NCBI GenBank assembly: GCA_031367385.1
Contig: JANLPS010000019.1
Span: 1-64,000 of the forward strand
Length of the DNA stretch: 64,000 nt
Direction of reading: 5' to 3'
Source: Archangium sp.
Lineage (GTDB): Bacteria > Myxococcota > Myxococcia > Myxococcales > Myxococcaceae
Shown piece after piece: positions 47,303 through 64,000 of the stretch. Made by a program: the position numbers and the translations under genes. The notes beneath the pieces were generated by a model. That model was not told the origin of the DNA and searched no databases. It saw only the letters and a program-made list of their open reading frames with translations. Positions within the stretch are counted from its first letter, which is position 1. Each line of letters begins with the position of its first letter.

Positions 47303-48622
47303 ATGAGCGTTTCATCGGTCGGGCAAGCGGGCAGCGCAGGTGAGGTCGTCGAGCTCGAGAATGACGACGCGCCCCCGGCGCCGGCGGTGGCTGACGCGGC
47401 ACCGGCCGTTCAAGAGAGCGGCTTCGACGACGCCAGGGCCCAGACGCTGGTGCTCAACCCCCAGGCGCCGCTGCTCGAGGTCGTCGATCGCTCGTCTATC
47501 GACTCCGAGGGCAAGAAGAAGGGCACCAACGACGACTCGATTGGCGATGGGCGCACCATCGGCAGCCGGCGTACTGACGTCATACCCACCATGGTTGCGA
47601 CGGGGCCCGTCGACGTCGCTGCGGTGACCGAGGGGTTGTCTGACGCCGCGAAAGAACAGGTGACCAAGCTGTTGGCCGACCCGGCGACGGCGAGCGACGC
47701 GTCGTACGCGTTCACCTCGGCGACGTTCGGCAAGCTCGAGGCTGATCAGCGCGAAAAATTCGTCGACATCATGGCGACTGGTGGCCCCCGCGCGACGCAG
47801 CTGTTGGCGATGGGGTGCGAGATCTGCGGTGACATCTCGTCTCTGCGCGCATGCGACGGGTCGACCGTGCTCGACAACCTCGACAGAATGGTGAAGCGCC
47901 CCGACCTCGCCCCCTATGTGGCCGACGTGCTGGCCGACATGGTGCTCCCGGAGCGCATCTGGCAGGGCAAGGCGCCGACCTGTACCGCGGCGACGATGCA
48001 GTTCGAGCTCGCGATGCGGCAGCCCGCCGAATTCAGCCGGCTGATGTGCGGCCTGGCGATCGACGGCTCGGTGAAAATGGCGGGCGGGGGTACGCTCGAG
48101 ACCCAGCCCGGCGCGGCGCTCAACGGCAGCATCGTCGCCGGCGACAAGCGCTCTCCGACGGAGGCGGTGTTTCAGGCCGCCCTGATGGAGTTCGCCAACG
48201 GCACCGAGACTTACGACTTCAACAAGATGCAGAGCACCACCGCGAATGGCTCTACGCACCGCGGCCTCAATGGTGATCAGATTCAAACCGCGCTCACGAA
48301 CCTCTTCAACGTGAGCTACCGCACCACCAAGACCACCACCCCCGAGGAAGCCGTTGGGGCGCTGAAAAGCCTGAGCCGGGGCGTCAGCGCCAACCGCCCG
48401 GTGCTGATCGACCTGGTGGTTGACGACACCACGAACCATTGCGTGGCCTTCGAGGGGCTCAACAATGGGCGCATTCAGCTGCGCGACCCAGAGACCGGCG
48501 AGCGTACCAGCCTCTCGACCCAAGAGTTCTTGGAGCAAGTCGCCGCAGTGCACGTCGCTCCGCTGCGGCGCGTGACCCGCAATGACCCGGTCACCGAGAA
48601 CGGGCGAATCTTCATTCAGTAA
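47303..48622 (+). CDS. Hypothetical protein with a C-terminal papain-like cysteine-peptidase fold and a disordered N-terminus
   Basis: WQGKAPTCTAATMQ (Gln, Cys), NHCVAF (His), LRDP (Asp); GGAGG RBS; no Sec signal. Confidence 0.7.
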   Translation: MSVSSVGQAGSAGEVVELENDDAPPAPAVADAAPAVQESGFDDARAQTLVLNPQAPLLEVVDRSSIDSEGKKKGTNDDSIGDGRTIGSRRTDVIPTMVATGPVDVAAVTEGLSDAAKEQVTKLLADPATASDASYAFTSATFGKLEADQREKFVDIMATGGPRATQLLAMGCEICGDISSLRACDGSTVLDNLDRMVKRPDLAPYVADVLADMVLPERIWQGKAPTCTAATMQFELAMRQPAEFSRLMCGLAIDGSVKMAGGGTLETQPGAALNGSIVAGDKRSPTEAVFQAALMEFANGTETYDFNKMQSTTANGSTHRGLNGDQIQTALTNLFNVSYRTTKTTTPEEAVGALKSLSRGVSANRPVLIDLVVDDTTNHCVAFEGLNNGRIQLRDPETGERTSLSTQEFLEQVAAVHVAPLRRVTRNDPVTENGRIFIQ

Positions 48623-48713: not shown

Positions 48714-50774
48714 ATGGACATTTCGGCCACCAGCAGCGTCACCCGCCCCATCGCCTCTGAAGTCGTCGACGCAGCGCCCGACACCGCGGCGACGACGGCG
48801 ACGCAGCCCGCCGACTCCAGCGCTGCGAGCAGCTTCGCCACCGCCAAAGACGTGCCGGTGGTGCTCGACGCGCAGGCAGACGCGCTGACCGTGTCGGCCG
48901 ATTCGCCCAGCTACCGGGTCTCGTGCTCGGGAGGCACCTTGATCGCGACTGGTGATGCGCAACCGGGGCAAAGCCAGGGCGCCAAAGACGCGTACGCCAC
49001 GATGCAGTTCACCGAGACCCACGTCGAGTCGAAAGAATACCAGGCGCTCACCTGGGCCTTCGACGGCGCGCCCGACAAGCAGCTGGCCACCCAGGTCAAG
49101 GCCGACGCGCTGGCGTACCTCGAGAAGACGCCGGGCCTCAAAGACGCGTGTGACGCGGCGGTCGTCGCGTGTGGTGCGGTGCCCTCGAAAGTCGAAGGCT
49201 TCAAAGTCGACTTCGCGCTCAATCACTTCGAGAACGTCGGCGCCGCGAAGGGCCTGAAGTGGGGTGAGACCGAGAAGCAGGTCAAAGACATGCTGAAGAC
49301 GAGCCGGGCAGAGGCTGCCGAGAAGAAGATCACGGTGCTCGACACCAAGGGTGGCAACGGCCAGAAGATCAGCGGCTACGTGGTCGCGAACGATCGCAAG
49401 GTCGTCAACATGGACGGCTCGAACAACACCATCGACATGTGCAGCGTGCCGTTCCCCCGGCCCTCGGGGCACTCCGATGCGATTCTCGGTGGCAATCACA
49501 ACTCGGGTCAGGTCGACATGGTCGGCACCGTGCTGATCAGGGCCGGCAGCGAAAACACGTGGACGGTGAAAGACCCCTCGCAGCGCCCCGCGCTGAACCC
49601 TCCCGCGACCGAGGTGGCCGGGTTGATCAAGCCCGAGCTTGCCGCCGCCGCCAAGAAATCGAGCATCGTGCTCGAGGGCAACTCGGCTGACTGGTCGGTG
49701 CTCGCCAACGGCGCGACCGCGACCTACACGAATACCAAGACCAAGACCTCGGTGTGCATACCCGCCGGGGCGCAAGGCCAGGTCTCGTACGCAGCCTCCT
49801 CGGCGCTCGACAAGATGGCGGCTGACCTGAAGGCCGGCGTGAAGCCAGCCGAGGTCTCGGTGTGCCTCGACCCGAACACCATCACCAAGCCCAAGCCGAA
49901 GACGGTGACGCCTCCCACCGACGGAGGCCCTGAGCCGACCAGCACGCCGGTCACGAGCAAGCCCGGGCCGGCCGTTGAGTCGCAGCCAGAGCTGAGCGCC
50001 TCATTCGACCAACTGTTGTCGTCGGTGCCCCCGAAGATGGCGAAGCGGTTAATCTTGGCGTGGCTCAAGAAAATGGGCATCACGCCGAACCCTGACGGCA
50101 CGCTGGCCTCATTGAAAGAGCAGCTGGCGGGCCTCATGAAGAGCGTCGGCCCAGCGAAGGCGGCGATCATCGAGAACTCGATTCGCCGCGAGGCCAAGAA
50201 AGAAATGGCCATGCTGCCCAAGTCGCCAGAGAAGCTGCTCCAGCCCTTGAGCAAAGCGCCGGTCAGCACCACCGCGACGACGCCCACCACCACCTCGAAG
50301 ACCTCGCCCTTCTACGACCCCTACGCGATGGCCGGCCAGCCGACGACCGAGCAGCTGGTGGCGGCGCAGGCGAAGGCCAACCTCGAGCCAGACCCGGTGA
50401 AGCGCGCGGCGATGCTGCAGACCATCGATGGTGTCTATGAGTCGAAGAAGCAGCACGCGGTCGCGGCGCAGATCGAACAACGCGCGCAGCAAGACAGCGC
50501 CGCGAGAGACATGTGCGGCACTGAAAAAGAGCGAAGCCGTCAGCTGATGACCGACAACGGGCTCAACTCCGCGGCGATCAACCAGGCGATGACGTTGATC
50601 GACGAGCAGTTCCTCGCCGCGAAGATCAACGCGATGGAGCACGGCGTGCCGTTCACCTCGTTCAAGTCGACCGCGGCTGAAGACGCGATCGCCCACGCCC
50701 TGCAGGTGATGCACGCCGACATGGCCCAGACCGGCATCACCGCCGAAGCGTGGATGGCGCGGCAACGCGGGTAG
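48714..50774 (+). CDS. Hypothetical protein with Ser/Thr/Ala-rich N-terminus and Pro/Thr linkers
   Basis: 686 aa ORF with host-like codon usage; no Sec signal; no recognised domain. Confidence 0.75.
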   Translation: MDISATSSVTRPIASEVVDAAPDTAATTATQPADSSAASSFATAKDVPVVLDAQADALTVSADSPSYRVSCSGGTLIATGDAQPGQSQGAKDAYATMQFTETHVESKEYQALTWAFDGAPDKQLATQVKADALAYLEKTPGLKDACDAAVVACGAVPSKVEGFKVDFALNHFENVGAAKGLKWGETEKQVKDMLKTSRAEAAEKKITVLDTKGGNGQKISGYVVANDRKVVNMDGSNNTIDMCSVPFPRPSGHSDAILGGNHNSGQVDMVGTVLIRAGSENTWTVKDPSQRPALNPPATEVAGLIKPELAAAAKKSSIVLEGNSADWSVLANGATATYTNTKTKTSVCIPAGAQGQVSYAASSALDKMAADLKAGVKPAEVSVCLDPNTITKPKPKTVTPPTDGGPEPTSTPVTSKPGPAVESQPELSASFDQLLSSVPPKMAKRLILAWLKKMGITPNPDGTLASLKEQLAGLMKSVGPAKAAIIENSIRREAKKEMAMLPKSPEKLLQPLSKAPVSTTATTPTTTSKTSPFYDPYAMAGQPTTEQLVAAQAKANLEPDPVKRAAMLQTIDGVYESKKQHAVAAQIEQRAQQDSAARDMCGTEKERSRQLMTDNGLNSAAINQAMTLIDEQFLAAKINAMEHGVPFTSFKSTAAEDAIAHALQVMHADMAQTGITAEAWMARQRG

Positions 50775-50850: not shown

Positions 50851-52212
50851 ATGAAGCTCGCCAGCGCAGCGCTTGTTCTGATGATGGCGACGAGCTGTGA
50901 CTTCGGCGCCGCCATGGTCATCACCACCGATTTCGAGGGAGCGACCGACGCTGGTCGCCGATTCGCCGATGGTGGTGTGCGCGCCGACGCCGGTGCGGGC
51001 GTGGCGGTGCTCGATGCAGGCAGGCGGCCCCAGGTCGACGCGGGCGAGCCAGGGTGTTTTCGCGACGCCGATTGCCGACCGAATTTTCACTGCAAGGGCA
51101 ATGGCGAGTTCGCGGGCGAATGCATCGCCGACCCCGGTACGTGCACCCACACCACCTGTGGCACCTCGTGCGGCACCGTCGCTGACGTCTGCGGCGGTAC
51201 CATTGCGTGCGGCGCGTGCGCCTGCGTGAAGGGCATTTGCGGCAGCTCGTGCGGCGAAATCTCAGACGGGTGCGGCGGCACGCTCGACTGCGGCACCTGC
51301 AACGCCTGCGTCCCGCTCTCCTGTGGCGCCTCGTGCGGCACCATTCCAAATGGGTGTGGGCGACACCTCGACTGTGGCGCGTGCCCCACCTGCTCGGCCA
51401 CCATCGGTAACTACCGCAGCCACACCAGCAACGAAGAATTCATCGACCCTCCGACGGCCGTGGGCGCGCCGGGGCCGATCAGCGGGTTCTCGGCATTGAG
51501 CTCACCAGTGCCAGTCGGAGCCACCACCATCGCGCTGAGCGGGTCGGTGCCGAACGCGCAGACCTGCTGCTGGCAAGTCGAAGGCGCGGCGGGTGGGCTC
51601 ACCACCGGCTCGGTGGCTCCAGGGGTTGACGGCGCGATCTCAGCGACGCTGCCGATCTTCTGCGGCAAGAACACGGTGCGTTTGGTCTGCGGCAACGGCG
51701 CCGGCTCGCGGGTGCTCATTCGCGAGCTCGATGCCCCCTGTCAGCCCAAAGACCTGCGCGTCACCCTCGGGTGGGACGATCAAGGCACCGACATGGAGCT
51801 GCACCTGGTTCGCGACCACGGGCACGTCAATACGGAGCTCGATTGCACCTGGTACACCTGCGTGAACCGCAACATCGGCTGGAGCGCGACGCCGGCCTCG
51901 AACCCGATCAAAGACGTCGATGACGTGACTTACGACGGGCCAGAGAACATCTACCTCGACACCGCAGCGCCCGGCACCTACCACGTGTTGGTCGAATACT
52001 GGGGCAGCGGCGCACCCTCGAAGAACACCATCACCGTCGCGGTTAAAGAGAAGACCGTCGGGTCGATCAGCAGAACGCTGCAAGTGCATGAGGTGTGGTA
52101 CGTCGGCACCGTAACTTTCCCCAGTGGCGCGATTGCGGCGGTCGACACCGTGACCGACTGCGCCGCCAGCTGGCGAAAAACGACGCATGGCTGTGATTTG
52201 ACGCTGCCGTAG
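50851..52212 (+). CDS. Lipoprotein with Cys-rich repeats and a C-terminal DUF2135/YfaP-like domain
   Basis: Lipobox ATSC; DAG linkers; LRVTLGWD…DMELHL…GPENI…GTYHVLVEYW. Confidence 0.8.
   Translation: MKLASAALVLMMATSCDFGAAMVITTDFEGATDAGRRFADGGVRADAGAGVAVLDAGRRPQVDAGEPGCFRDADCRPNFHCKGNGEFAGECIADPGTCTHTTCGTSCGTVADVCGGTIACGACACVKGICGSSCGEISDGCGGTLDCGTCNACVPLSCGASCGTIPNGCGRHLDCGACPTCSATIGNYRSHTSNEEFIDPPTAVGAPGPISGFSALSSPVPVGATTIALSGSVPNAQTCCWQVEGAAGGLTTGSVAPGVDGAISATLPIFCGKNTVRLVCGNGAGSRVLIRELDAPCQPKDLRVTLGWDDQGTDMELHLVRDHGHVNTELDCTWYTCVNRNIGWSATPASNPIKDVDDVTYDGPENIYLDTAAPGTYHVLVEYWGSGAPSKNTITVAVKEKTVGSISRTLQVHEVWYVGTVTFPSGAIAAVDTVTDCAASWRKTTHGCDLTLP
51142..51393 (+). repeat. Three tandem ~28-aa Cys-rich coding repeats
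   Basis: CGTSCGTVADVCGGTIACGAC / CGSSCGEISDGCGGTLDCGTC / CGASCGTIPNGCGRHLDCGAC. Confidence 0.8.
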
Positions 52213-52330
52213 CGATTGTTGCGTCAACTGATGCGGCCGCGGCATCGAAGGCCGAGCCCATGTCACGTCACGTGCGAATCACTCCGATTCTCGAGCAGCG
52301 GTGGGCGTGTTGCTCTACGGTACGCGCCCC

Positions 52331-53050
52331 GTGACCCCCCGGCTCCTCTTCGCTTGCCTGGCATTGGTGACGGCCTCGGGCTGCATCACCGTGTACCAGC
52401 CCTTGGTGTCGCTGCAGCGGCCCTTCGCGGTCGACCCCGAGTTGGCCAACTTCGAGGGCCAGAACATCTTGGTGCGCTGCGTGCCCGGCGACTACGTCGA
52501 GCTGCCCGATGCGCAGCAACTCTGTCAGCAGATGCGCGAGCTCTACGAAGCGCAGAGCGCGAAGGTCGAGACCGATGTACCGCGAAAGAACACGGGGTTT
52601 CTGACCACCAAGTTCAAGCCTGATCTGATCGTCGAGCTGCGCGGCCGGCTCTTGAAACGGGAGACCAGCAATTTTCTGATCAACCTGCTCTTTTTGGCCT
52701 CGGCGTCGCTGATACCCACGACCGAAGAGATCGAGATCGCGCAAGACGTGATCATTCGCGACGCGAGCGGCTTTCAGTTGGCGCAAGACTCGCTGCAGGC
52801 GCGCTTCGTGCGGCAGTACGGGCTGGGCGTGTGGGGCGTCAACGCGCTGGTCGATCTGATCGTGCGACCCAAGAATCAGAAGATCACCGGAGACGGCTAC
52901 CGGAGGGATTTCAGCGCGGATTTTTACGGTCACCTGAGCGAGCTCGCGTTTCATGCCCGCATGCGCTCGGCGATCATGCATGAGTTTGATCAGCCGTTGA
53001 CCGTCGCGCCCCCTGCTTCGACGGCCCCTGTGCCGAAGGCCAAGCCGTGA
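52331..53050 (+). CDS. Lipoprotein; gene 1 of the putative motor operon
   Basis: Lipobox ASGC; internal hydrophobic hairpin LINLLFLASASLIP; GTG start inferred. Confidence 0.75.
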   Translation: MTPRLLFACLALVTASGCITVYQPLVSLQRPFAVDPELANFEGQNILVRCVPGDYVELPDAQQLCQQMRELYEAQSAKVETDVPRKNTGFLTTKFKPDLIVELRGRLLKRETSNFLINLLFLASASLIPTTEEIEIAQDVIIRDASGFQLAQDSLQARFVRQYGLGVWGVNALVDLIVRPKNQKITGDGYRRDFSADFYGHLSELAFHARMRSAIMHEFDQPLTVAPPASTAPVPKAKP

Positions 53051-53676
53051 AGCTGCTGCCGATGGCCCTGGTGTTGAGCGGCTGCGCCTACGACCCGTCA
53101 CCCGGCTTGTCACACACGCGCCGTGAAGCACGAAACTTCGAGTGCCAACGCCTGGGGCAAGAAGAGGCCCACGACCGGTACCCGGGCGACATACCACCGG
53201 TGCCGCCGCGGCAGATGGCGCAGGCGATGACCGAAGCGCTGGTGTGCGAGCCGCGCTTCATTTCAATCGATGATCGCGCCCCGCGTGACGAGGCGATCTT
53301 GTCGACCCTTCGCCGTGATGTCGGGGCACTGACCGAGCTTGCCAGCACCCTCACTCCGGGAGCGCTGGTCTGGCACGTCGATGCGTTTTACCCGGAGCAG
53401 GCGGTGGCCTCGAAGATCTCAATCGCCGCGAAGACCGAGCTGTTCGAGCGCGGCCGCGCGGTGTCAGACCGCGTACCGACCCTGGCCGCCGGAGACATCT
53501 CGGTGCTCAGCCGGCTGCCTCCCAACCAGGCCTATGCGACCGCCTGCACGCGCTATTTCGCGGAGCACGTCTTGGGCGAGCACGACGTTTTTCTCGGGCT
53601 GATGGTGGTCGACCCCCGAGAGACCCAGCTGCACGCGGGCGTCTGCCAGGCCGGCAAGTGGCGGTGGGTGCAATGA
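53047..53676 (+). CDS. Lipoprotein; motor operon gene 2
   Basis: MKLLPMALVLSGC lipobox; GTGA overlap. Confidence 0.8.
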   Translation: MKLLPMALVLSGCAYDPSPGLSHTRREARNFECQRLGQEEAHDRYPGDIPPVPPRQMAQAMTEALVCEPRFISIDDRAPRDEAILSTLRRDVGALTELASTLTPGALVWHVDAFYPEQAVASKISIAAKTELFERGRAVSDRVPTLAAGDISVLSRLPPNQAYATACTRYFAEHVLGEHDVFLGLMVVDPRETQLHAGVCQAGKWRWVQ

Positions 53677-54863
53677 AGCGCGCTCTCTTGGCAATGCTGG
53701 TGTCATCGGTCGCCTTCGCCAACCCCGACCCCAAGACGCCCGACGCGCAGCGAGCGCAGATCGAAGCCGTGCGTGCAGAGATCGCCGCGCAAATTCAACT
53801 GCAAGCCTACGACCTCATCGACGAGCTGGTCTTCGAGTGGCTGCAGAACCCACCCTTTGGCGTGGCCACCCCGCTGGTGTTGGCCGACGTCGGAGTGCCG
53901 GTCAGCTTCGGCAGTGGCCTGCAGGCGCTGATCGAAAATCACCTCACCTCAGTCGTGCTCAAGAACCCGCGCTCGAACGTCGTGCTGACCCACTGCCCGG
54001 CGTGCACCGCGATGGTGGTGCACTCTGGCGCGAAGGGCACGGTGGTCTCGCGCGGGGTCGATTCACCCGAGGCGTTGGCCGAAGCCGGCACCGCCGCACA
54101 AAGCAAGCATGCGTTGTTTCTCGACTTCGAGGTCGAGGGCAGCGCGATGGTCTTGCGCGTGCGAATCACCTCGCTCGAGCCTTCGTTGCCCATCGTCTAC
54201 GCGAAGACGCTGACCACCTCGACCGGCAGCGCCGCCTTGCTGCGTACCGGAGATCGTCTGAAGAGCGCCGCCGACGCGCGCAAAGAATACACCGACATTC
54301 TCGAGAACCGCAGCACCTGGACGATACCGATCAAAGTCGGCGTGAAGACCTACCCGCCGGGCTTTCAAAGCATCCCCGCGCCCCCATTCATTTGGATCAG
54401 CGGGGGCGTCGAGGCGGGCTTCAACCAGGCGCGCGCGTGGTTGGCGAGCTTCTCGGTGGGGGTGAGCTGGGCACCGCAGTCGCACACCGCGTGGTCGGCC
54501 CAAGCGCGCGTCGCCCGGCTGCTCACCGGTACGGTCAGCTCGCTCACGCACCCAGATCTGTACTTCTTTCTCGGCGCGTCGATCGTCTCGGTCTACGGCA
54601 ACTCAGCCCTGTTGTTCTCAGACGATGACGTGAGCATCGACGAGCTCACCAGAATCATCACCAACAACCCCAACCAGACCCCGTCGCGCACGTTCGGCGC
54701 GTTTCAAATCGGCCTCGAGCTTCGGGTGAAGAACCGCATCGGCGTCGGCGTCTACCTCGAGACGATACCCGCGCTGGCCAGTGACAGAAACATCGGCAAC
54801 TACCTGAACCTGGGCCTGCTTCGTTTTCAGACCTTCGGTGCCGAGGTGTCGTTTTGCTTCTGA
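53673..54863 (+). CDS. Secreted protein with CsgG/FlgO/TolB_N-like domain (CPAC) and C-terminal beta-barrel-like region; operon gene 3
   Basis: Signal peptide ending VAFA; HCPAC; amphipathic strands ending FGAEVSFCF with terminal Phe; ATGA overlap. Confidence 0.75.
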   Translation: MKRALLAMLVSSVAFANPDPKTPDAQRAQIEAVRAEIAAQIQLQAYDLIDELVFEWLQNPPFGVATPLVLADVGVPVSFGSGLQALIENHLTSVVLKNPRSNVVLTHCPACTAMVVHSGAKGTVVSRGVDSPEALAEAGTAAQSKHALFLDFEVEGSAMVLRVRITSLEPSLPIVYAKTLTTSTGSAALLRTGDRLKSAADARKEYTDILENRSTWTIPIKVGVKTYPPGFQSIPAPPFIWISGGVEAGFNQARAWLASFSVGVSWAPQSHTAWSAQARVARLLTGTVSSLTHPDLYFFLGASIVSVYGNSALLFSDDDVSIDELTRIITNNPNQTPSRTFGAFQIGLELRVKNRIGVGVYLETIPALASDRNIGNYLNLGLLRFQTFGAEVSFCF

Positions 54864-55834
54864 ACGTTCGGTTGATCTGTGTGTCGGCGCTGGTCCTCGC
54901 TCCGGCGGTGGCCCAGGCGCAACGCGAGATCACCCGCAATGCGTTGCTGCGCTTCGAAGAGACCATGTCGCTGCGCCGCGAAGAAGGGGCGCGCGAGGTC
55001 AAAGAGCTGCTGCCGGCGATCGTGATCAGCGTCACGCCCGCGTTCGAACAGACCCGGGCCTGGTACCCGACCGCCGCCCTGGCCTCGCTGGTGCACGTCT
55101 TCGGAGCCCCCTCGTTGCGCTCGTGCGAGGCCTGCATGGCGCCCCATGCGTACATCGCGAATGGCCGCTTCGAGCAGTCGTCGACCGCGTTGACCGCGGC
55201 CGAAATCACCCGGCTCGATGCGCTGGCGAGAGGTAAGAGCGCTCCCGCGCGAATCGCGATCTGGCTCGACGAAACGACCGAAGGGGTCTCGCTCAAGGTC
55301 ATCGACTTGCAGAACAGCCGCATCGTGATGGCCCAGAACTTCGACCCGAGCTTGAGCGAGCAGGCCCGCACCACCAAGGGGCAGACCTTCGCCGAAGAGC
55401 TCGACCGCCGGCAGCGCGGAGACAGCCTCACCCACACCTTCATCGACGTGGCGCTCTACCCGGGGCAGCACATCTCGCTCGACTGGGCCGAGCAGTGGGG
55501 CGACACCAACGCGAACCTGTCGGGCGTTTCGCTCTCGCTCTTCGACCCCGTGCTGGGCGTTGGCGCCGAATATTTTCGCGTCATACCGCAAGCGTTGAAC
55601 CTGATGGTCGGCGCGAAGGTCTTGCTCAGCGTGCCCACGGCGTTGATTCAAGCCATCGCTGGGTCGAGAGGCCAGGTGCCGACCTTGTTCGACCCGATCA
55701 TCACCGGCGTGTTCATGGTGCGCCTGCCCATCGCCAGCTCGAATTACGGCGTCATTCTCTCGGTCTCGACCAACGGCCGTGTCGGCCTTGGCTTCTCGTT
55801 GATGAACCTCTCATTGCTACCCTTCTTGCCATGA
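54854..55834 (+). CDS. Secreted protein with CsgG/FlgO-like domain (CEAC) and C-terminal beta-strand region; operon gene 4
   Basis: Signal peptide ending AQA; SCEAC; VSLKVIDLQNSRIVMAQ; amphipathic C-terminal strands. Confidence 0.75.
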   Translation: MLLNVRLICVSALVLAPAVAQAQREITRNALLRFEETMSLRREEGAREVKELLPAIVISVTPAFEQTRAWYPTAALASLVHVFGAPSLRSCEACMAPHAYIANGRFEQSSTALTAAEITRLDALARGKSAPARIAIWLDETTEGVSLKVIDLQNSRIVMAQNFDPSLSEQARTTKGQTFAEELDRRQRGDSLTHTFIDVALYPGQHISLDWAEQWGDTNANLSGVSLSLFDPVLGVGAEYFRVIPQALNLMVGAKVLLSVPTALIQAIAGSRGQVPTLFDPIITGVFMVRLPIASSNYGVILSVSTNGRVGLGFSLMNLSLLPFLP

Positions 55835-56466
55835 ACCGACTCCTGCTTTTCACCGTGGCGGCGATGTGCGCCTCTGGCTGCGCGGCACGAAATTACACCT
55901 ACTTTCTGGTCGACCCGAACCCGCAGCGGCACCCTGCGCTCAAAGAAGAGGGCACGCTGATGCGGCCCTTCGCGTACGGCTCGACCACCGTGATGAAGGT
56001 CAGGTGGAACGACGGCAACCTGATCACCGAGGTCGACGTGCCGGTGATGGCCTCGGGTCAGCGAATCGTGATCGAGCACGGCGCGGGCAGCAGCGAGGTG
56101 AAGACGATACCGGCGATGCGGGTGGTGCCTCCGACGCCGACGCCGGCTGACACGGCGTTGATCGAGGCGTACCGCGCGCGTGGGTTGCGCATCAACGAAG
56201 ACGCACCCGACGTGAGCATCATTCGCGCCCGCACCGAGATGCAAGACGCGATCAAGACCGGCAACTACCAGATCGCCCTCGAGTGGGCCGAGACGGTGCT
56301 GCAGCGCTACAAGTCGCACCCCGAATTCTTACGAGCCAAGGCCTCGCTGCTGTTGATGATGGGCGAGCGCGACAAGGCGATTGAAGTGTACGAGCAGGTC
56401 GAGGGCATCGAGAGCGACCCTGCTGTTCGAAAGAAACTCGAAGAGCTGCAACGCCAGCAGAAGTAG
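55831..56466 (+). CDS. Lipoprotein with C-terminal TPR; operon gene 5
   Basis: Lipobox ASGC; GNYQIAL…HPEFLRAKASLLLMMGERDKAIEVYEQ TPR pattern; ATGA overlap. Confidence 0.8.
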   Translation: MNRLLLFTVAAMCASGCAARNYTYFLVDPNPQRHPALKEEGTLMRPFAYGSTTVMKVRWNDGNLITEVDVPVMASGQRIVIEHGAGSSEVKTIPAMRVVPPTPTPADTALIEAYRARGLRINEDAPDVSIIRARTEMQDAIKTGNYQIALEWAETVLQRYKSHPEFLRAKASLLLMMGERDKAIEVYEQVEGIESDPAVRKKLEELQRQQK

Positions 56467-56476
56467 GAGAAACGTC

Positions 56477-57187
56477 ATGCAGATCATTGGTCTCGTCATG
56501 TTGGGGTTCATCGTGTGGTTCGGGTTCACCGACCGCACTGGCAGCGGCGTCATCTCGGCGTTCGACTCGCACGCATTCGTGATGGTGCTGGTCGGCTCGG
56601 CTGCGGCGGTGATGGTCAGCTCGACCGGCAAGACCGCCTTGCGCACGATCACCGCGCTGCGAGAATTGATCCCCGGGTTTCGGCTCTTTGGGCGGGTCAC
56701 TTCGGCGATGGAGGCCGAGCGTGAAGCGGTCTGCGCGGCCTGGCGAGAAGGCAAGCGCAGCCAGGCGTTGGCCATCGCCGAGCGCAGCACCTACCCGGCG
56801 GTGAAGCAGGTCGCCGAGCTGCTGCTCACTCGCTCACCCGCGGTCGCCAGCGCGAAGGTGTTTCTCGAATTGCGTCACGGCGAGATCAGCTTCTGGCAGC
56901 CGCCGATCAACAACTGGGAGATGCTCTCGAAGCTCGGCCCCTCGTTCGGCATGGTCGGTACCATCACCGGCATGATTCAGCTCTTTCGAAACATGAGCTC
57001 AGACAATTTGAACATCGGCGCGGCAATGTCACTCGCGTTGCTGGCCACCTTGTACGGAGTCGCATTCGGCGCCGGCGTCGCCGCCCCCATCGGGCACTAC
57101 TTGAACGGCTTGCTCGACGAGCGGCTCGGGTTTCTCGAGCGCTGCGAAACCAGCGTCAATGAGCTCGTCGCCCGCGGAGCCATCTAA
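56477..57187 (+). CDS. motA: MotA/PomA-type stator subunit in a non-flagellar context
   Basis: N-terminal TMs with FDSHAFVMVLVGS; GPSFGMVGTITGMI; IGAAMSLALLATLYG; AGGAGA RBS. Confidence 0.88.
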   Translation: MQIIGLVMLGFIVWFGFTDRTGSGVISAFDSHAFVMVLVGSAAAVMVSSTGKTALRTITALRELIPGFRLFGRVTSAMEAEREAVCAAWREGKRSQALAIAERSTYPAVKQVAELLLTRSPAVASAKVFLELRHGEISFWQPPINNWEMLSKLGPSFGMVGTITGMIQLFRNMSSDNLNIGAAMSLALLATLYGVAFGAGVAAPIGHYLNGLLDERLGFLERCETSVNELVARGAI

Positions 57188-57190
57188 CCC

Positions 57191-57814
57191 ATGCAACGCC
57201 GCAAGATGGGCAATGAGGAAGGGTGGCTGCTCAGCTACGCCGACCTGATCACCAACTTGCTCTTGTTCTTCGTCGTGCTGCTCACCGCCGCGAACTTGAG
57301 CAAGGGGCGCATGCAACAGATTGCCAAGAGCATCTCGGGGCAAGAGAGCCCGCAGAGCCTCGAGTCGATGCGCAAAGAAATCGACGCGCAGATTCAAAAG
57401 CAGAAGCTGCAGGAGCTCGTCGCGACCACCGTCTCTGAAGCGGGCCTCGAATTGTCACTCAATTCGGGCCTGGTGTTCGACTCTGGCAAGGCCGCGATTC
57501 GCCCCGAGCTCGAGCAGACCATCAACGCGATGCTCACCACGCTGACCCCCTACTCCTCGAAGTACCAATTCGCGGTCGAGGGCCATACCGACCCGACGCC
57601 AATCAACGGCGGGGCCTTCGCCAGCAACTGGGAGCTCTCGAGCGCACGCGCCATCGTGGTGCGGCAACGGCTCGAAGACGTCGGCATCTCGCGCGGCCGG
57701 GTTCGCGTCGAAGGGTACGCCGATACGAAGCCGTTGCCTGAAGAGCAGCTCAAAGGGTTGACCCCTGAAGAACGCATGGCCCGGCTCCGCCGCGTCGTGG
57801 TGAGGATCTACTGA
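57191..57814 (+). CDS. motB: MotB/PomB-type stator subunit with OmpA-like peptidoglycan-binding domain
   Basis: WLLSYADLITNLLLFFV with the conserved Asp; LVFDSGKA; VEGHTD; NWELSSARA; GYADTKP; RRVV. Confidence 0.92.
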   Translation: MQRRKMGNEEGWLLSYADLITNLLLFFVVLLTAANLSKGRMQQIAKSISGQESPQSLESMRKEIDAQIQKQKLQELVATTVSEAGLELSLNSGLVFDSGKAAIRPELEQTINAMLTTLTPYSSKYQFAVEGHTDPTPINGGAFASNWELSSARAIVVRQRLEDVGISRGRVRVEGYADTKPLPEEQLKGLTPEERMARLRRVVVRIY

Positions 57815-59646
57815 TGCGTCTGTTTCTGATCAGCACCCTGGTGTCTCTCACCGCGCTCGCGCAGACCGCGACGCAGCCCGCGCCGATACCGGGCAAGCAC
57901 ATCCCCGCTCCGGTGTTGATGGAGCTGCGGGCACTCGAGAATCAATTCGACCTCTCGCTTGGCCGCGACTGCGCGCCTGAGAAGTGCATCTCGAAGGGGT
58001 GCGTGTATCAAGACCACGCGGTCGTCGACATGCCGCGCAACGCATCGCTGCCAGGCCTGGGTCAAACCGAAGGCCCGGGCAGCGTGCCGATTCAGGAGTA
58101 CCTGACCGTCGCGCACTGTGACTTCGCGCACGAGAAGTCGGTGTCGCCGCGTGATGTGGCCGCGTTGGTGAAGCGCCTCGAGCAGCGCCTGGCCAAGGGC
58201 TGGCTGCAGGTCACCGTGGGTCACCAGATTCTCGAGCCGATCTCCGAGAGCCTGCGTGACTCGCCGCCTCCGCCGCCGGTCGTCGAGCCGGTGAAGCCGA
58301 AAGAGCCCGTGGCCGCACCACCGCCTCCCCCAAAGTGGGACGCCGAGGTCGCGCTGCGAGAGCTGTGGGTGGCCCTGTTGCCCCACTTCTCGTGGATGGC
58401 GGCGATCGGGTTGCTCACCGCGGCGACGTTGATGATCATCTGGGCCCTGCGGCGGCTGGGCAGCCAGACCCTCGAAGAGAAGGCGATGCTCGCGCAGCTC
58501 AACGCGGGCACCTTGACGGGTGCTCCGGCGGCTGAAGACCCGGCCGAGAAGAAAGAAGAAGAGGCGAAGACCGATGGTCTCTCGCTCGAAGATCAAGCCA
58601 ATGCGGCCTTCGTGGCCGAGCAACATACCCAGTGGGGTTCACGCTTCGACAAGGCCGATCTCGCCAAAGACGACAGCGTGGTGGTCGAGCTGTTGCGCGA
58701 GTGGCTCAGGGCCGGCGAGTTTCCCCTGCTGGCGAAGGCGATCTTCACCTTTGGCGATCGCCTCTCGGTCGCCTTCCCCTCCGACGGGGAGTACGCGGTG
58801 CGCAAGGTCGAGTTCGCCGAATATCTGCGCTCACTCGACCGCACGATGCTGCCTTCAGACTCAGCCTTTTATCGGCAGCTGAGCCAACACGCGATCGCGG
58901 CCTCGCTGAACGCCCAATCTGACGCAGGCATTTATCTCAGCCTTCGAGAAGAGTTCGGCAGCGCGGGCATCGCGAGCTTGATCGAGCGGCTGCCCGAGCG
59001 TCACGGTGCGCTGCTCTTCGGCCTGGTGCCCTCTGACGTGCAAGACGAGGTCGCCCGAGCGCTGCCCGCCGACGTGCGGCTCGAGACGGCCCGTCAGCTG
59101 TTGCTCACCAACCGCATCTCTCGAGAAGAGCGCGGTCACTTGTTCGAGGCCATCGACGCGGCGCGGGCTGGGCTGGCGCTGCCGCTGACTCCGCCGGCGA
59201 GTGACAACGACGTCATCGACCGTGGCCGCGAGTTCGACGCCGCCGGCGCGCTGTCGATGCTGCTGCCTTTCATCGACGCAAAAGACCGCCGGTCGCTCTT
59301 TCTCACCGCGTACCAGCGCTCGAACGGCGCGTTGCCGCACTGGTACGAGAGCATTCTGTACCCCGACATGCTGCTCAAGGTGCCCAGCGAACTGCAGGCC
59401 GACATGCTCCTCGAGGTCGACGTCAAAGGCCTGGCGGGCTGGTCATCGTTGCAGTCGCCGGCCTGGCAAGAGCACTTCTTGGCGGCCTTAAGCCCGTCAT
59501 TGCAGAACGCGCTGCGGGCCAGCATGGCGTTTCGCTCGCGGGCCGATCAGCTCAACGCCGCCCGAAAAGGCCAAGCCGAGTTGGTCGCCTCGGTGAAGAA
59601 GCTCGTCACGCAAGGCAAGGTCACCTTCTCTGAGATCGTGGCCTGA
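57814..59646 (+). CDS. Membrane-anchored FliG-like protein: signal peptide, FliF-RBM3-like periplasmic domain, TM helix, FliG_M-like and FliG_C-like domains
   Basis: C-terminus LLEVD…EHFLAALS…LR…Q.ELV..VKKL…GKV aligns by eye with FliG_C; IASLIERLPERHGALL…LPADVRLE resembles FliG_M; TGATG overlap with motB. Confidence 0.72.
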   Translation: MRLFLISTLVSLTALAQTATQPAPIPGKHIPAPVLMELRALENQFDLSLGRDCAPEKCISKGCVYQDHAVVDMPRNASLPGLGQTEGPGSVPIQEYLTVAHCDFAHEKSVSPRDVAALVKRLEQRLAKGWLQVTVGHQILEPISESLRDSPPPPPVVEPVKPKEPVAAPPPPPKWDAEVALRELWVALLPHFSWMAAIGLLTAATLMIIWALRRLGSQTLEEKAMLAQLNAGTLTGAPAAEDPAEKKEEEAKTDGLSLEDQANAAFVAEQHTQWGSRFDKADLAKDDSVVVELLREWLRAGEFPLLAKAIFTFGDRLSVAFPSDGEYAVRKVEFAEYLRSLDRTMLPSDSAFYRQLSQHAIAASLNAQSDAGIYLSLREEFGSAGIASLIERLPERHGALLFGLVPSDVQDEVARALPADVRLETARQLLLTNRISREERGHLFEAIDAARAGLALPLTPPASDNDVIDRGREFDAAGALSMLLPFIDAKDRRSLFLTAYQRSNGALPHWYESILYPDMLLKVPSELQADMLLEVDVKGLAGWSSLQSPAWQEHFLAALSPSLQNALRASMAFRSRADQLNAARKGQAELVASVKKLVTQGKVTFSEIVA

Positions 59647-59693: not shown

Positions 59694-61700
59694 ATGAGAG
59701 TTGCGGTTCTCGCGCTGCTCTTCGCGGCTTGCGAAAAAGTGCCCATCGTCGACATCGGAGCGACCTTTTCACTCTCCGATGCGACCTGGTTTCAAGACGA
59801 AGAGACCCTGTTCATTTTCTACCGGGTCGAAGCCCTGCAGGGCCTGGGGCCGAAGAGCCAGATCGAGGTCACCTACCGCACCGACGACCTCGAGCAGCCG
59901 TGGGCGAACATCGCTGATCTGCCCGCGGTGCATACCCACCTGCCGGTGAGCTGTGGTCAGTACATGCTGTGTGGCAGCACCAGCCTTCACGTCAAGACCG
60001 TGCCACGCGATGTCGGCATTCGGCTGCGCTACCACCATGACGGCTCACTCGCGGCCGAGTCGACCGTGACCTTCAACGTCGTGGGCTCAGGCCCAGCGCA
60101 CCTGAGCCGGAGCCTGCTGATCTACGGCGTGTTCGATGCCACCAACACCCACGTGCAGTGGCGCGCGCGACACCAATTTCCGACCTTGCGAAATCAGCAG
60201 GTTCAAGACCTGGGGCTGCGACGATTTTTTCGCGTCGAGACCCCGAGCGTGGGTGACCTGCAGGGCCAAATCGACGGCAACCCGTACGCCTACGCCTTCG
60301 CGCGCAGGTGCCCCGACCACTTCATACCTCTGGGTTGGGCCGTGGCCGCCACCACGACCCGCGCCATCTTCGCGGCCGAGAGCGTGCCGGTCACCGCCTT
60401 CGACGCGCCAGTCATCTGCGGTGAATCGACAGTGACCGACGCCAAGGGCACCTTCAGCGCCGCGGCCCTCGCGCAGAAGAACCCTCAGACCCGGGCCGCG
60501 TTTCCCTCGCTGCGCAGCCCGATCACCGAGAACACCCCGATTGGTTTTTCAATCGAGCCTTGCGAGCGCACCATCGACGCGGCTGAGCTGGCGATGCAGA
60601 AGCAGCGGCTGCAGTTGGTTGGGGCTCCAATCATCTGCAACGACCACTGGCAAGACCCGGCCTTCGTTGACCGCGTGGTATCGACCCTTCGCACCGCCAT
60701 CGACGGCGTGCGCACCGGCGGCAAAGACATGGTGCTCTCACTGGCCGTTCATCACGACGACACCACCGGCCAGTTTCAAGCCACGGTCGAAAAGGCCCTC
60801 GCGCAGATCTTGCCGTTCGAGCGCGAGAAGAGCTCCCCCCGCCTCAGCGGGGCGTTCGTCTTCGACACCGTCGCGCACCTGGTGTCTGACAAGGCGGTCG
60901 CGCGCTTGGCGCTCTGGTGCCCGTCGAACATCGCGGCGGTCGACCTCGATACCGTGAGCAACGCGTCGCTGCGCTCCTGCCCGGTGTTGCCCGACATCCC
61001 TGATCTCATTCTCGGGCCGATCAAGCTGAGCAGCTTGCCAATCTTGCCGACCCGCGCCCAGTTCGACACCTTCATCGCGAAGTACTCGGCCCAGCTGACC
61101 GGCAGCGTCACCCAGATTCACTACCTCGCCCCAGAGCGCACGCCGACGTCGGCCAACATCCCCATCGGTGACTTCGGCGTGGTGACCTTCTTCAACAATG
61201 AGTCGTTCGCCGCCGCGGCGACCGATGCCTTCTCGTTCTGCACCACTGAAGATTCACGCGTCAGCTTCATCGCGGTGCGGGTCGCCGATTTTCCCAACAA
61301 CCCGTTTCCCCTCTCGACGTTGCCCGACTTTCACTCGCAGATGCCGCGCGACACCTACCAACTGGGCATCGGGTGGGACTTTCCGTTTCTGTTGCGGCTC
61401 GAGTACCAGGTGGTGCTGGCCGGGGCGGCGTCGGCCTTTTCGGTCTCGGTGCCTTTCGGCATCGGCGCGCCCAGCAAGGGGTACTACGGCGCCCAGCTGT
61501 GGGAAACCGGCGAGATACCGCTGACCGACGCCCTCACCCAGTGCACGCGCTTCTGTGACCTGCCGACCTTCGATTCTGCCGGCGTCTACAACGTGAGCTC
61601 GCACTTCCGCTCCACCTACGGGCATCAGTGCTACCGCCCGGCGTACCCAGTGTTCGACGCGGCCCACATTGGCGAGGGGGGGTTCCCGCTTGATCCTTAG
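59694..61700 (+). CDS. Large Cys-containing lipoprotein; operon gene 9
   Basis: MRVAVLALLFAAC lipobox; 668 aa; many Cys; no recognised domain. Confidence 0.8.
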   Translation: MRVAVLALLFAACEKVPIVDIGATFSLSDATWFQDEETLFIFYRVEALQGLGPKSQIEVTYRTDDLEQPWANIADLPAVHTHLPVSCGQYMLCGSTSLHVKTVPRDVGIRLRYHHDGSLAAESTVTFNVVGSGPAHLSRSLLIYGVFDATNTHVQWRARHQFPTLRNQQVQDLGLRRFFRVETPSVGDLQGQIDGNPYAYAFARRCPDHFIPLGWAVAATTTRAIFAAESVPVTAFDAPVICGESTVTDAKGTFSAAALAQKNPQTRAAFPSLRSPITENTPIGFSIEPCERTIDAAELAMQKQRLQLVGAPIICNDHWQDPAFVDRVVSTLRTAIDGVRTGGKDMVLSLAVHHDDTTGQFQATVEKALAQILPFEREKSSPRLSGAFVFDTVAHLVSDKAVARLALWCPSNIAAVDLDTVSNASLRSCPVLPDIPDLILGPIKLSSLPILPTRAQFDTFIAKYSAQLTGSVTQIHYLAPERTPTSANIPIGDFGVVTFFNNESFAAAATDAFSFCTTEDSRVSFIAVRVADFPNNPFPLSTLPDFHSQMPRDTYQLGIGWDFPFLLRLEYQVVLAGAASAFSVSVPFGIGAPSKGYYGAQLWETGEIPLTDALTQCTRFCDLPTFDSAGVYNVSSHFRSTYGHQCYRPAYPVFDAAHIGEGGFPLDP

Positions 61701-62457
61701 CGTCCTCCTGATGGTGGCGTTGTCGGTCGACCCCCCGCCTCCTCCAGACGACACCTCGCTGACTTCGCAACGCACCGCCTTCGACGCGTTGACCGAGCGC
61801 GCCCTGGGCACCGCTTCACGCGCCGTGCGCTTCGACTGGAGACGCACCACCGTCGGCTTCGGCGTTTCTTCGAGCATCGTGCTCGACCTCAACAATTTCT
61901 CGAGCGGCCGCGTCGGAGGCTTCGCGCGAATACCGGCCGGGAGCTTTTTGATCGAGCTCGCCATCACCCGGGTCATCAGCTGGGGCAGCGCCAGCTCGTA
62001 CCAGCTCTCATTGACCCCCTACCGGCAGTACGGCCGACCGAGCCGGGTGGAGCTCGACCTCAACGTCAGCTACCCGCTCTTCGAGGGCGTCGCGACGGCG
62101 AAGCTGGGCTTCATCCCCGCGGCGCAGTTCGTGTTTTCAATCACCGCGGGCCTTCGGTACCTCTACTACCCAGGCTCGCTCTCGAAGATGACGGCGCCCC
62201 AAGTCGCTGGTGCGCTCTTCGCCCCGAACCTGGGAGAAACCGAGGTCGCCAACATGGAGCCCCAGCTCTTGCCGAGCATGCAGATCGATCGCGGCCGGTA
62301 CCAAGTGATGGCTGGGTTCTCGCTCGACGTGTTCTTTCAGCCGGGTCTGTTCGTGACCCCCCGGGTGCTGCTGGGCATACCCGTCACCACGCTTGGCAAC
62401 GGGCAGGGCGTTGGCCTGTGGTGGGAGCTCAGCCTGCTGGCCGGGTGGCAGTTGTGA
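61690..62457 (+). CDS. Predicted outer-membrane beta-barrel protein; operon gene 10
   Basis: Hydrophobic signal; alternating amphipathic strands; C-terminal strand WWELSLLAGWQL; TTG start overlaps the previous gene. Confidence 0.7.
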   Translation: MILSVLLMVALSVDPPPPPDDTSLTSQRTAFDALTERALGTASRAVRFDWRRTTVGFGVSSSIVLDLNNFSSGRVGGFARIPAGSFLIELAITRVISWGSASSYQLSLTPYRQYGRPSRVELDLNVSYPLFEGVATAKLGFIPAAQFVFSITAGLRYLYYPGSLSKMTAPQVAGALFAPNLGETEVANMEPQLLPSMQIDRGRYQVMAGFSLDVFFQPGLFVTPRVLLGIPVTTLGNGQGVGLWWELSLLAGWQL

Positions 62458-64000
62458 CCGGAGCGCTGGGGCTCGCGGTGATGCTCTGCGCGCTGACGGT
62501 CTCGGCGCAATCGACCGACTTGCAGCCCACCGTTTTTTACAATGCGCGCATGGCACTGCGTGAAGGCGAGCCCGCGGAGTCGCTCAAGTTGTGGCTCTTG
62601 CGAAACAGCATCGTCGACCAGGGCATCGCGCCCAGCAATGACACCGATTTTCACTCGGTGCTGTGGGTCGCGCTCGGAGACCTGGGGCTGTGCCAAGACG
62701 GCATCGCCAAAGACGAGCACGGCGGCGCGGGGCTCTGGCCGCTCGCGATGCACAACTGGGTGCTGACCTCGGTGGCAAAGGGCGGGCCCGTCGACAACCC
62801 GTCACCCTTCGATGCGTTCGAAGCCGGGCTGCAGCAGCGCTTCATCTCGCTGCATGACGTGCTCTCGAGCGAAGAGCTGCGTTCGGCGAGCTTCTTTCGA
62901 ACCAACTGCTGGGCGCCGCAGGTGGTGATGCTCGATCAGGGCCAGCCCGTCGTCACTGAGCTGACTGATCGCCTCGTCTCGGGCCCCTTCTTGAAGTCAC
63001 TGCTCGAGCGCGCGCTGCGAACGATGTCGAAGACCAAGGTGCAGAATCGGGCGATTCTCGAAGCACGGTTGTTCGATCTCGACCTGGCGATGGCGGCGCT
63101 GCTCGAGCGGCAAGCCGCACAGCTTGCCCAGCAGCGAGCCCAAGATGCCCGCGGCGCCGGGGCCTCGGAGCGAGCGGTCAAAGACCTCGAGACCCGAACC
63201 AGGCGATGGTCGGTCACCACCAAGCAGGCCGAGTTTCTTCGTCGAGCGCTGACCTGGCCGGTGCGCGATTGGCTGGTGCTAAGCCAACCCCGGCGACTCT
63301 CGTTGTTCGCGCAGGCACGGGCGGTCTCGAATGACGAGCACCCCGGTGACCCGCAGCCCTTCGAGGCGTTGCTGTTGGGCCTCATCGACGAGCTGATCGA
63401 GCGAAAAGCCGGCGCTGAGCTCGAGCTGTGGCTTGGGTGGCTCGACGCCAGCAAGGTCACCTCGCGACGCCAAGCGCTGATCACCGGAGAGCGCGGCAAA
63501 CGAATTCTCGAGCTCGACGCCGAGTCTGGCTTTCGCGAGCGCTCGGTGATTGCGCTGCACCGCGGGCTGGCGTTTCTCGAAGCGGGCGACATGCGTGAAG
63601 CGTTGATTTCGTTCGCCTTTGCGATGGCCCACGCCGAGAGCTCGCGCGAGCCCACCGTCACCATGTCGCTGGCACGTCGCTGGGTCTCGTACGTACTGGC
63701 GCGCTACGAGGCGACCGACGAGGTCATCGCCACGCTGAAGGCCTTGGTACCCTCGCAAGAGTACAACTCGGTCGTCGAAGACTTGATCTGGCGCGCGGCG
63801 CTCAACGCCGATTTGCCATCGTTCAATCGATTGATGGCGACGACCCGGCGTGGAGGCTCGTTCGATGCGCGGGCCATTCGCCTCAGGCTCCTCGCGCAAG
63901 GCAACGCCGGAGCGTTGGCCACCCAGCTTCGAGACGCGGTGAAAGAAGAACCGTTCTTCACCGTTCGCTTCGTTCGGCAGGTCATCGAAAAGCTCGAGGC
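62454..64000 (+). CDS. Large secreted, mainly helical protein truncated by the window edge; operon gene 11 (absent from the ORF track)
   Basis: GTGA overlap; reads MTGALGLAVMLCALTVSAQSTDLQPTVFYNARMALREG…LWLLRN…GLCQDG…GLWPLAMHNW; frame appears open to the end. Confidence 0.8.
   Translation, partial: MTGALGLAVMLCALTVSAQSTDLQPTVFYNARMALREGEPAESLKLWLLRNSIVDQGIAPSNDTDFHSVLWVALGDLGLCQDGIAKDEHGGAGLWPLAMHNWVLTSVAKGGPVDNPSPFDAFEAGLQQRFISLHDVLSSEELRSASFFRTNCWAPQVVMLDQGQPVVTELTDRLVSGPFLKSLLERALRTMSKTKVQNRAILEARLFDLDLAMAALLERQAAQLAQQRAQDARGAGASERAVKDLETRTRRWSVTTKQAEFLRRALTWPVRDWLVLSQPRRLSLFAQARAVSNDEHPGDPQPFEALLLGLIDELIERKAGAELELWLGWLDASKVTSRRQALITGERGKRILELDAESGFRERSVIALHRGLAFLEAGDMREALISFAFAMAHAESSREPTVTMSLARRWVSYVLARYEATDEVIATLKALVPSQEYNSVVEDLIWRAALNADLPSFNRLMATTRRGGSFDARAIRLRLLAQGNAGALATQLRDAVKEEPFFTVRFVRQVIEKLE

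Follow-up and report, generated by a model that had tools for sequence, protein, structure and literature searches.

Comparison with the flagellar motor and related systems

The closest described system to the locus discussed here is the core of the flagellar motor, comprising the FliF MS-ring, FliG and the MotA5B2 or PomA5B2 stator. Our locus lies in a 64,000-nucleotide stretch of DNA from Archangium sp. (contig JANLPS010000019.1 of assembly GCA_031367385.1, positions 1 to 64,000; hereafter the window) and centres on a gene at 57814..59646, on the + strand like every cassette gene and domain located below. Its 610-residue open reading frame (P0001) encodes a domain like the third ring-building motif of FliF (RBM3), a transmembrane (TM) segment and FliG-like domains in a single chain. 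This fusion gene is the eighth of 12 co-oriented genes (contig positions 52301-65005, gaps of -11 to +47 bases), and its start codon overlaps the stop of motB. Since it stands next to its own motA and motB in a cassette conserved in bacteria with or without flagella, the fusion may well be the rotor of a non-flagellar, one-way motor; we give an even chance to the proposal that it forms, with its own MotA and MotB, a switchless, one-way, proton-driven rotor coupled to outer-membrane partners.

First of all, the cassette has in common with the flagellar motor core an RBM3-type fold bearing an insertion where the collar sits, a TM segment, FliG N, M and C regions, and a stator with a plug, an OmpA-like anchor and a channel Asp. 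The differences lie in how these parts are built and combined. Here the rotor is one chain with a signal peptide, whereas FliF has TM1, RBM1 and RBM2; it carries an insertion of about 22 residues and four Cys, and it has lost EHPQ and the torque charges. MotA is shortened and has an invariant Trp, and the cassette contains neither FliM/FliN nor an export gate, rod, hook or filament, but nine other envelope genes, eight of them without a family and one with TPRs only. FliF closes into a ring of about 34 subunits, whereas for the present protein there is a four-copy, head-to-tail model. On the features tested, the system would work like the flagellar motor core while falling outside the flagellum, FliF proper and canonical FliG.

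Second, the non-flagellar type III secretion system (T3SS) of Myxococcales is a flagellum-derived machine found in the same bacteria, and this genome's copy has a FliG-like protein. Abby and Rocha (2012, PMC3459982) describe a system that retains an export apparatus without MotAB. The cassette is its complement, with rotor and stator kept and the export apparatus absent. Third, GldLM is an ion-driven system with non-flagellar work in the envelope. ExbBD, TolQR, AglRS and ZorAB are likewise ion-driven and, according to published descriptions, serve non-flagellar functions across the envelope together with barrels, lipoproteins or TPR proteins. In a test that used this genome's seven other MotA/ExbB-family proteins, the A subunits of ExbBD-TonB, TolQRA, AglRQS-Glt, ZorAB and GldLM fall outside the cassette MotA clade. 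To our knowledge, none of these systems uses a FliG ring, and we know of no fused FliG or cognate MotAB for the ring-building motifs of SpoIIIAG and EscJ/PrgK. No description of a system such as ours was found in the literature searched, whose coverage leaves out most subscription journals, and we regard it as categorically new, though assembled from known parts; what sets it apart is the 12-gene cassette, a ring domain with a short collar and a probable Cys lock, and a stepwise loss of torque charges.

Architecture of the fusion protein

The N-terminus of the fusion protein is hydrophobic, with an AxAQ consensus across the family, and was called by eye, with no predictor behind it, as a likely signal peptide of about residues 1-16 (57814..57861). 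An AlphaFold2 model built from 107 homologues (mean predicted local distance difference test, pLDDT, 86; predicted template modelling score, pTM, 0.60) shows a compact periplasmic domain (residues 28-142, 57895..58239), a Pro-rich linker (residues 143-176, 58240..58341), a long TM-bearing helix and an all-helical remainder. The sole internal hydrophobic segment accounts for the single TM segment (residues 194-212, 58393..58449) and is followed by a conserved RR-x-G. Beyond it lie juxtamembrane helices with a FliG_N-like region (residues 258-366, 58585..58911), a FliG_M-like domain (58912..59178) and a FliG_C-like domain (59350..59643). The gene is split into two matches in one genome (G304:C12:399082-400909), and at L038 and L063 the match begins internally; frameshifts or sequencing errors are possible in each case.

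Profile-profile comparison makes the homology to FliG firm (P 99.3%, E 6.5e-20), and all of the top 12 Foldseek matches are FliG. Both the N/M/C fold and the profile homology are present, and the likeness reaches into FliG_N (residues about 301-366). With Pfam alone this copy stays below the cut-off (FliG_C E 0.015; MgtE_N E 8e-4), and the distant homologues P0218, P0238 and P0253 exceed that for FliG_C. The original prediction for this locus, made by a model from the sequence, had described a signal peptide, a periplasmic domain with four Cys, a Pro-rich linker, a single TM helix and a cytoplasmic region resembling FliG; the reading frame and the AlphaFold2 model bear out this layout, and the matches agree with a FliG-like C-terminus and are specific to FliG, beyond generic ARM or MgtE_N repeats.

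Loss of the FliM-binding motif and the torque charges

When the fusion protein is aligned to a control set of 33 FliG sequences, EHPQ falls on L393-P-E-R396, the torque Arg on S562 and the acidic pair on A569/S570, reproducing the registers of the original prediction, which had read LPER for EHPQ and Ser/Ala for the torque Arg and acids. The control FliGs have E, P and Q of the motif in 32/33 each, and the torque Arg and both acids in 33/33. Across the family the EHPQ site has the consensus L-P-P-R, with E at 395 in only 3/107. In the near family (n=107), position 562 is Ser in 54, Thr in 31, Ala in 21 and Pro in one, and position 570 is Asn in 68 and Ser in 33. Among the paired loci, from which L027 and L061 were dropped as truncated by contig ends, an acid at 569 or 570 occurs in 0/60 intact rows, while the torque Arg occurs in 0/51 intact near rows and in 9/9 rows of the distant branch. 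On the simplest reading of these alignments, the acids would be gone throughout the whole family and the Arg would have been lost later. The near-family FliG_C domain is not decaying, with R568 kept in 100/107, F573 in 99/107 and E589 in 99/107. Because EHPQ is lost and the cassette lacks FliM and FliN, the earlier description of the rotor as non-switching fits, for a ring whose rotation we infer.

The stator

The gene at 56477..57187 encodes a MotA-like subunit of flagellar type that ends before the usual last cytoplasmic helix, and that at 57191..57814 a MotB with a plug, an OmpA-like peptidoglycan-binding domain and the channel Asp18. All of these flagellar-type features of MotB are clear: the plug and the OmpA-like domain score above the Pfam cut-off, and the channel Asp is present in 67/67. 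The best models for MotA are flagellar PomA/MotA, at sub-cut-off scores. In a 39-row tree, which is midpoint-rooted and does not give the order of events, the MotAs of 14 cassettes come together in a single group with a long branch (support 93/94). The split that separates this group from the genome's seven ExbB/TolQ-type proteins (100/99) leaves it on the flagellar side.

In E. coli, as stated in PMC12505986, R90 pairs with D288-D289 and E98 with R281. If the alignment is fixed at the helix-capping Gly, Trp89 takes the place of the MotA Arg in 62/62 cassette proteins. The expected Glu of the rotor-contact pair is invariant in none of three registers; control MotAs have the Arg in 14/16 and the Glu in 16/16. 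The Trp would mirror the lost acids of the rotor, a sequence-based reading that is only suggestive because MAFFT and hhalign put R90 or K93, respectively, at the Arg position. The rewired stator interface proposed originally is supported on the rotor side, where the torque charges are lost, and in part on the MotA side, where the rotor-contact face seems altered and the alignment register is ambiguous.

The periplasmic domain

The modelled order in the periplasmic domain is helix 32-52, strand 58-71, loop 72-93, strand 94-107, helix 112-126 and strand 131-140, that is, an RBM3 fold with an insertion between strands 1 and 2, as in FliF. The loop (58027..58092), of low model confidence, is a 22-residue insertion that holds SLPGL and lies at the place of the FliF beta-collar. 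Cys53, Cys58, Cys63 and Cys102 never vary among 75/75 diverse homologues, and neither does the Pro-Gly of the insertion; the Cys residues probably form disulfides. TM1, RBM1 and RBM2 of FliF are absent, a single globular domain preceding the lone TM segment. In structural comparison the domain matches FliF RBM3 with a Z score of 8.8 over 110/126 residues, against 9.3 for CDF C-terminal domains over only 79 residues. In a four-copy model, a job outside the tool's calibration in which four copies do not amount to a closed ring, head-to-tail self-binding scores 0.53 versus 0.00 for controls, through a heterologous interface. These models predict an RBM fold that binds itself head to tail, in keeping with the ring-forming, FliF-like domain suggested originally; as had also been said then, the FliF call is weaker than the FliG call. 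An Atlas neighbour cluster contains FliG together with YscJ_FliF_C, which 22% of its members carry.

Conservation of the cassette and its independence of flagella

The cassette has a fixed composition. In loci with room for them, genes 1 to 5 are present in 41/43, 43/45, 46/47, 47/48 and 50/50, motA and motB in 54/54 each, and genes 9 to 12 in 49/49, 48/48, 44/44 and 43/43, with gene order kept among related loci, whereas the genes flanking the cassette on either side recur in 0/39. Carriers belong to Myxococcota (Archangium, Hyalangium, Polyangia and Bradymonadia) and Silvanigrellaceae, the cassette being syntenic in Myxococcota and Bdellovibrionota. Nine distant cassettes keep genes 1, 3, 4, 5, 9 and 10 and motAB. 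Export gate, switch proteins, rod, hook and filament were all looked for in the cassette and none was recognised.

The cassette is independent of flagellin. This genome, which is 98% complete, gives no match for flagellin or rod proteins, and its sole YscJ/FliF and FliM-like matches, as well as its other FliG-like match, lie in a T3SS cluster on contig C61. Among 301 genomes of the phylum, which are related and not independent samples, the fusion gene occurs in 36 and flagellin in 97: 20 have both, 16 the gene alone (this genome among them; four single-contig) and 77 flagellin alone. The complete genome holding L005 likewise has no flagellin match.

The T3SS cluster (C61 14649-33565) comprises SctJ, a 466-residue FliG-like protein, SctL/N/O and a FliM-domain SctQ, and the FlhA/SctV-family gene of the T3SS is on C45 (4996-7125).

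Proposed mechanism and alternative explanations

We propose that the fusion protein would form the rotor ring of a stand-alone, proton-driven motor, with the upstream MotA and MotB as its stator. The wall-anchored MotA5B2 would gear onto the FliG_C rim in a contact without the usual charge pairs, and the ring would turn one way because FliM and FliN are absent. From the periplasmic ring and its short hairpin collar, motion could then pass to the cassette lipoproteins and outer-membrane barrels, the output being perhaps the movement of a surface protein or the transport of a macromolecule. The Bacteroidota GldLM motor, which drives its ring, offers an analogy for this transfer of motion. Tentatively, and with slightly less than an even chance, we take the proposal further: in predatory bacteria, flagellar rotor and stator would work without an export apparatus as a full one-way rotary motor of the envelope, complementary to the T3SS, with a Trp-based contact in place of the charge pairs and a dedicated outer-membrane complex as the driven part. 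Such a motor would either have arisen as a second exaptation of the flagellum or have survived from a pre-flagellar rotor. What we infer are the closure of the ring, its contact with the stator, its rotation and the output.

Several observations weigh against a rotating motor. First of all, in the wide family the mean conservation of FliG_C is 0.35, versus 0.50 for the periplasmic domain, and none of the torque-helix charges is invariant. Second, quite apart from the ambiguous MotA register, an acid at MotA 99 occurs in 22/53 near pairs without the rotor Arg and in 6/9 far pairs with it, so that rotor and MotA show no strict covariation. Third, CDF C-terminal, KH and OsmC domains have the RBM fold at equal or higher Z, and the self-binding result may mirror likeness to solved FliF rings. 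Finally, a rod or bearing-like part was not identified in the cassette.

The main alternative, which we consider unlikely, is a static ring scaffold that docks MotAB, with the FliG part serving assembly or docking only, while MotAB pulls the gene 12 partner, as in ExbBD-TonB or TolQR-TolA, to open outer-membrane barrels. The torque charges are indeed lost, their helix drifts across the wide family, and the periplasmic domain and TM segment are the best conserved parts; gene 12 is laid out like TonB (judged by eye only), and the T3SS on C61 shows a FliG-like protein kept in a cluster without a stator gene seen. However, the stator retains the plug and peptidoglycan anchor, which an mBio 2025 stator survey lists as flagellar traits, treating plug-bearing, wall-anchored MotAB as specialised for flagella. 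Gene 12, moreover, has no Pfam match or meaningful PDB match and is undetected in 9/9 distant cassettes, the distant branch retains the torque Arg, and surface residues of near-family FliG_C such as R568 and E589 are strongly conserved. Less probable by far is an envelope stress or phage sensor like Zorya ZorAB, in which the ion motor recruits effectors via a cytoplasmic platform. The patchy distribution (36/301 phylum genomes) and variable flanks fit such a mobile cassette, but all 12 genes apparently encode exported or membrane-bound proteins, family scans (PADLOC not run) recognised no nuclease, helicase or other effector, NCBIfam gives no ZorA match for MotA, and the genes stand in strictly the same order in both phyla. 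Equally improbable is that the system serves the flagellum or the myxobacterial T3SS as an accessory and forms no independent machine; 20/36 carriers have flagellin and other contigs of this genome encode a T3SS, but 16/36 carriers, four of them single-contig, lack flagellin, the gene is absent from 77/97 flagellin-positive genomes, and the T3SS already has its own SctJ and FliG-like protein. Finally, a periplasmic domain of unrelated alpha/beta fold (CDF C-terminal or KH) in a monomeric or dimeric, membrane-tethered FliG/MgtE-like adaptor has the slimmest chance, since the CDF/KH matches span 76-79 residues and skip the insertion, the exported domain precedes TM and FliG in the position of FliF, the predicted interface is heterologous, and the Atlas cluster joins FliG with YscJ_FliF_C.

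A single-chain rotor with its own stator, as we propose, would be a minimal motor that can be expressed and imaged, and such a system would bear on the open question of how flagellar rotor and stator were joined in evolution. The charges that flagellar FliG keeps invariant are naturally missing here, which offers a test of electrostatics versus gearing in torque transfer. Since cultured carriers exist (Archangium, Hyalangium), knockouts and tomography are feasible.

Other cassette genes, neighbouring genes and related fusions

The accessory cassette proteins have no family except for TPRs in gene 5, and their lipoprotein and barrel labels were assigned by eye. Genes 1 (52301..53050, best Pfam E 0.24) and 2 (53047..53676) encode likely lipoproteins, as do gene 5 (55834..56466, with TPR) and gene 9 (59694..61700, 668 residues). 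Gene 3 (53676..54863) encodes an exported protein with a CxxC alpha/beta domain and a likely beta-barrel ending in Phe, and gene 4 (54863..55834) an exported, weak paralogue of it (E 0.0025), with a CsgG match at E 0.04 in 1/25 members. A likely outer-membrane beta-barrel is encoded by gene 10 (61690..62457), and a 640-residue exported protein by gene 11 (62454..64000 in the window, continuing to contig position 64376). Gene 12 lies beyond the window (64373-65005), its product having a basic N-terminus, a TM segment, a Pro linker and a small C-terminal domain.

In the nine distant cassettes (L149-L157), motAB is flipped and lies divergently upstream of the remainder in 9/9, and genes 11 and 12 are mostly undetected; a tenth distant region, with a longer fusion family, has no cassette match. 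Upstream of the cassette, the window contains two large Ala/Thr-rich open reading frames (47303-48622 and 48714-50774), without a Pfam family and found in 0/63 related loci, followed by a Cys-rich exported protein (50851-52212), also outside the cassette (0/39), whose short repeats are of the CGTxxDxCGG type and which gives a weak DUF2135 match.

Further long membrane-anchored FliG fusions, with open frames of 764-930 residues, occur at L077, L078, L079, L080 and L082 in Silvanigrellaceae-type genomes (G001-G003). At L079 and L080 the fusion gene directly precedes a motA/motB pair of its own, whose MotA lacks the canonical Arg motif, and a single genome can carry several long FliG fusions besides a flagellar FliG and a short divergent one.
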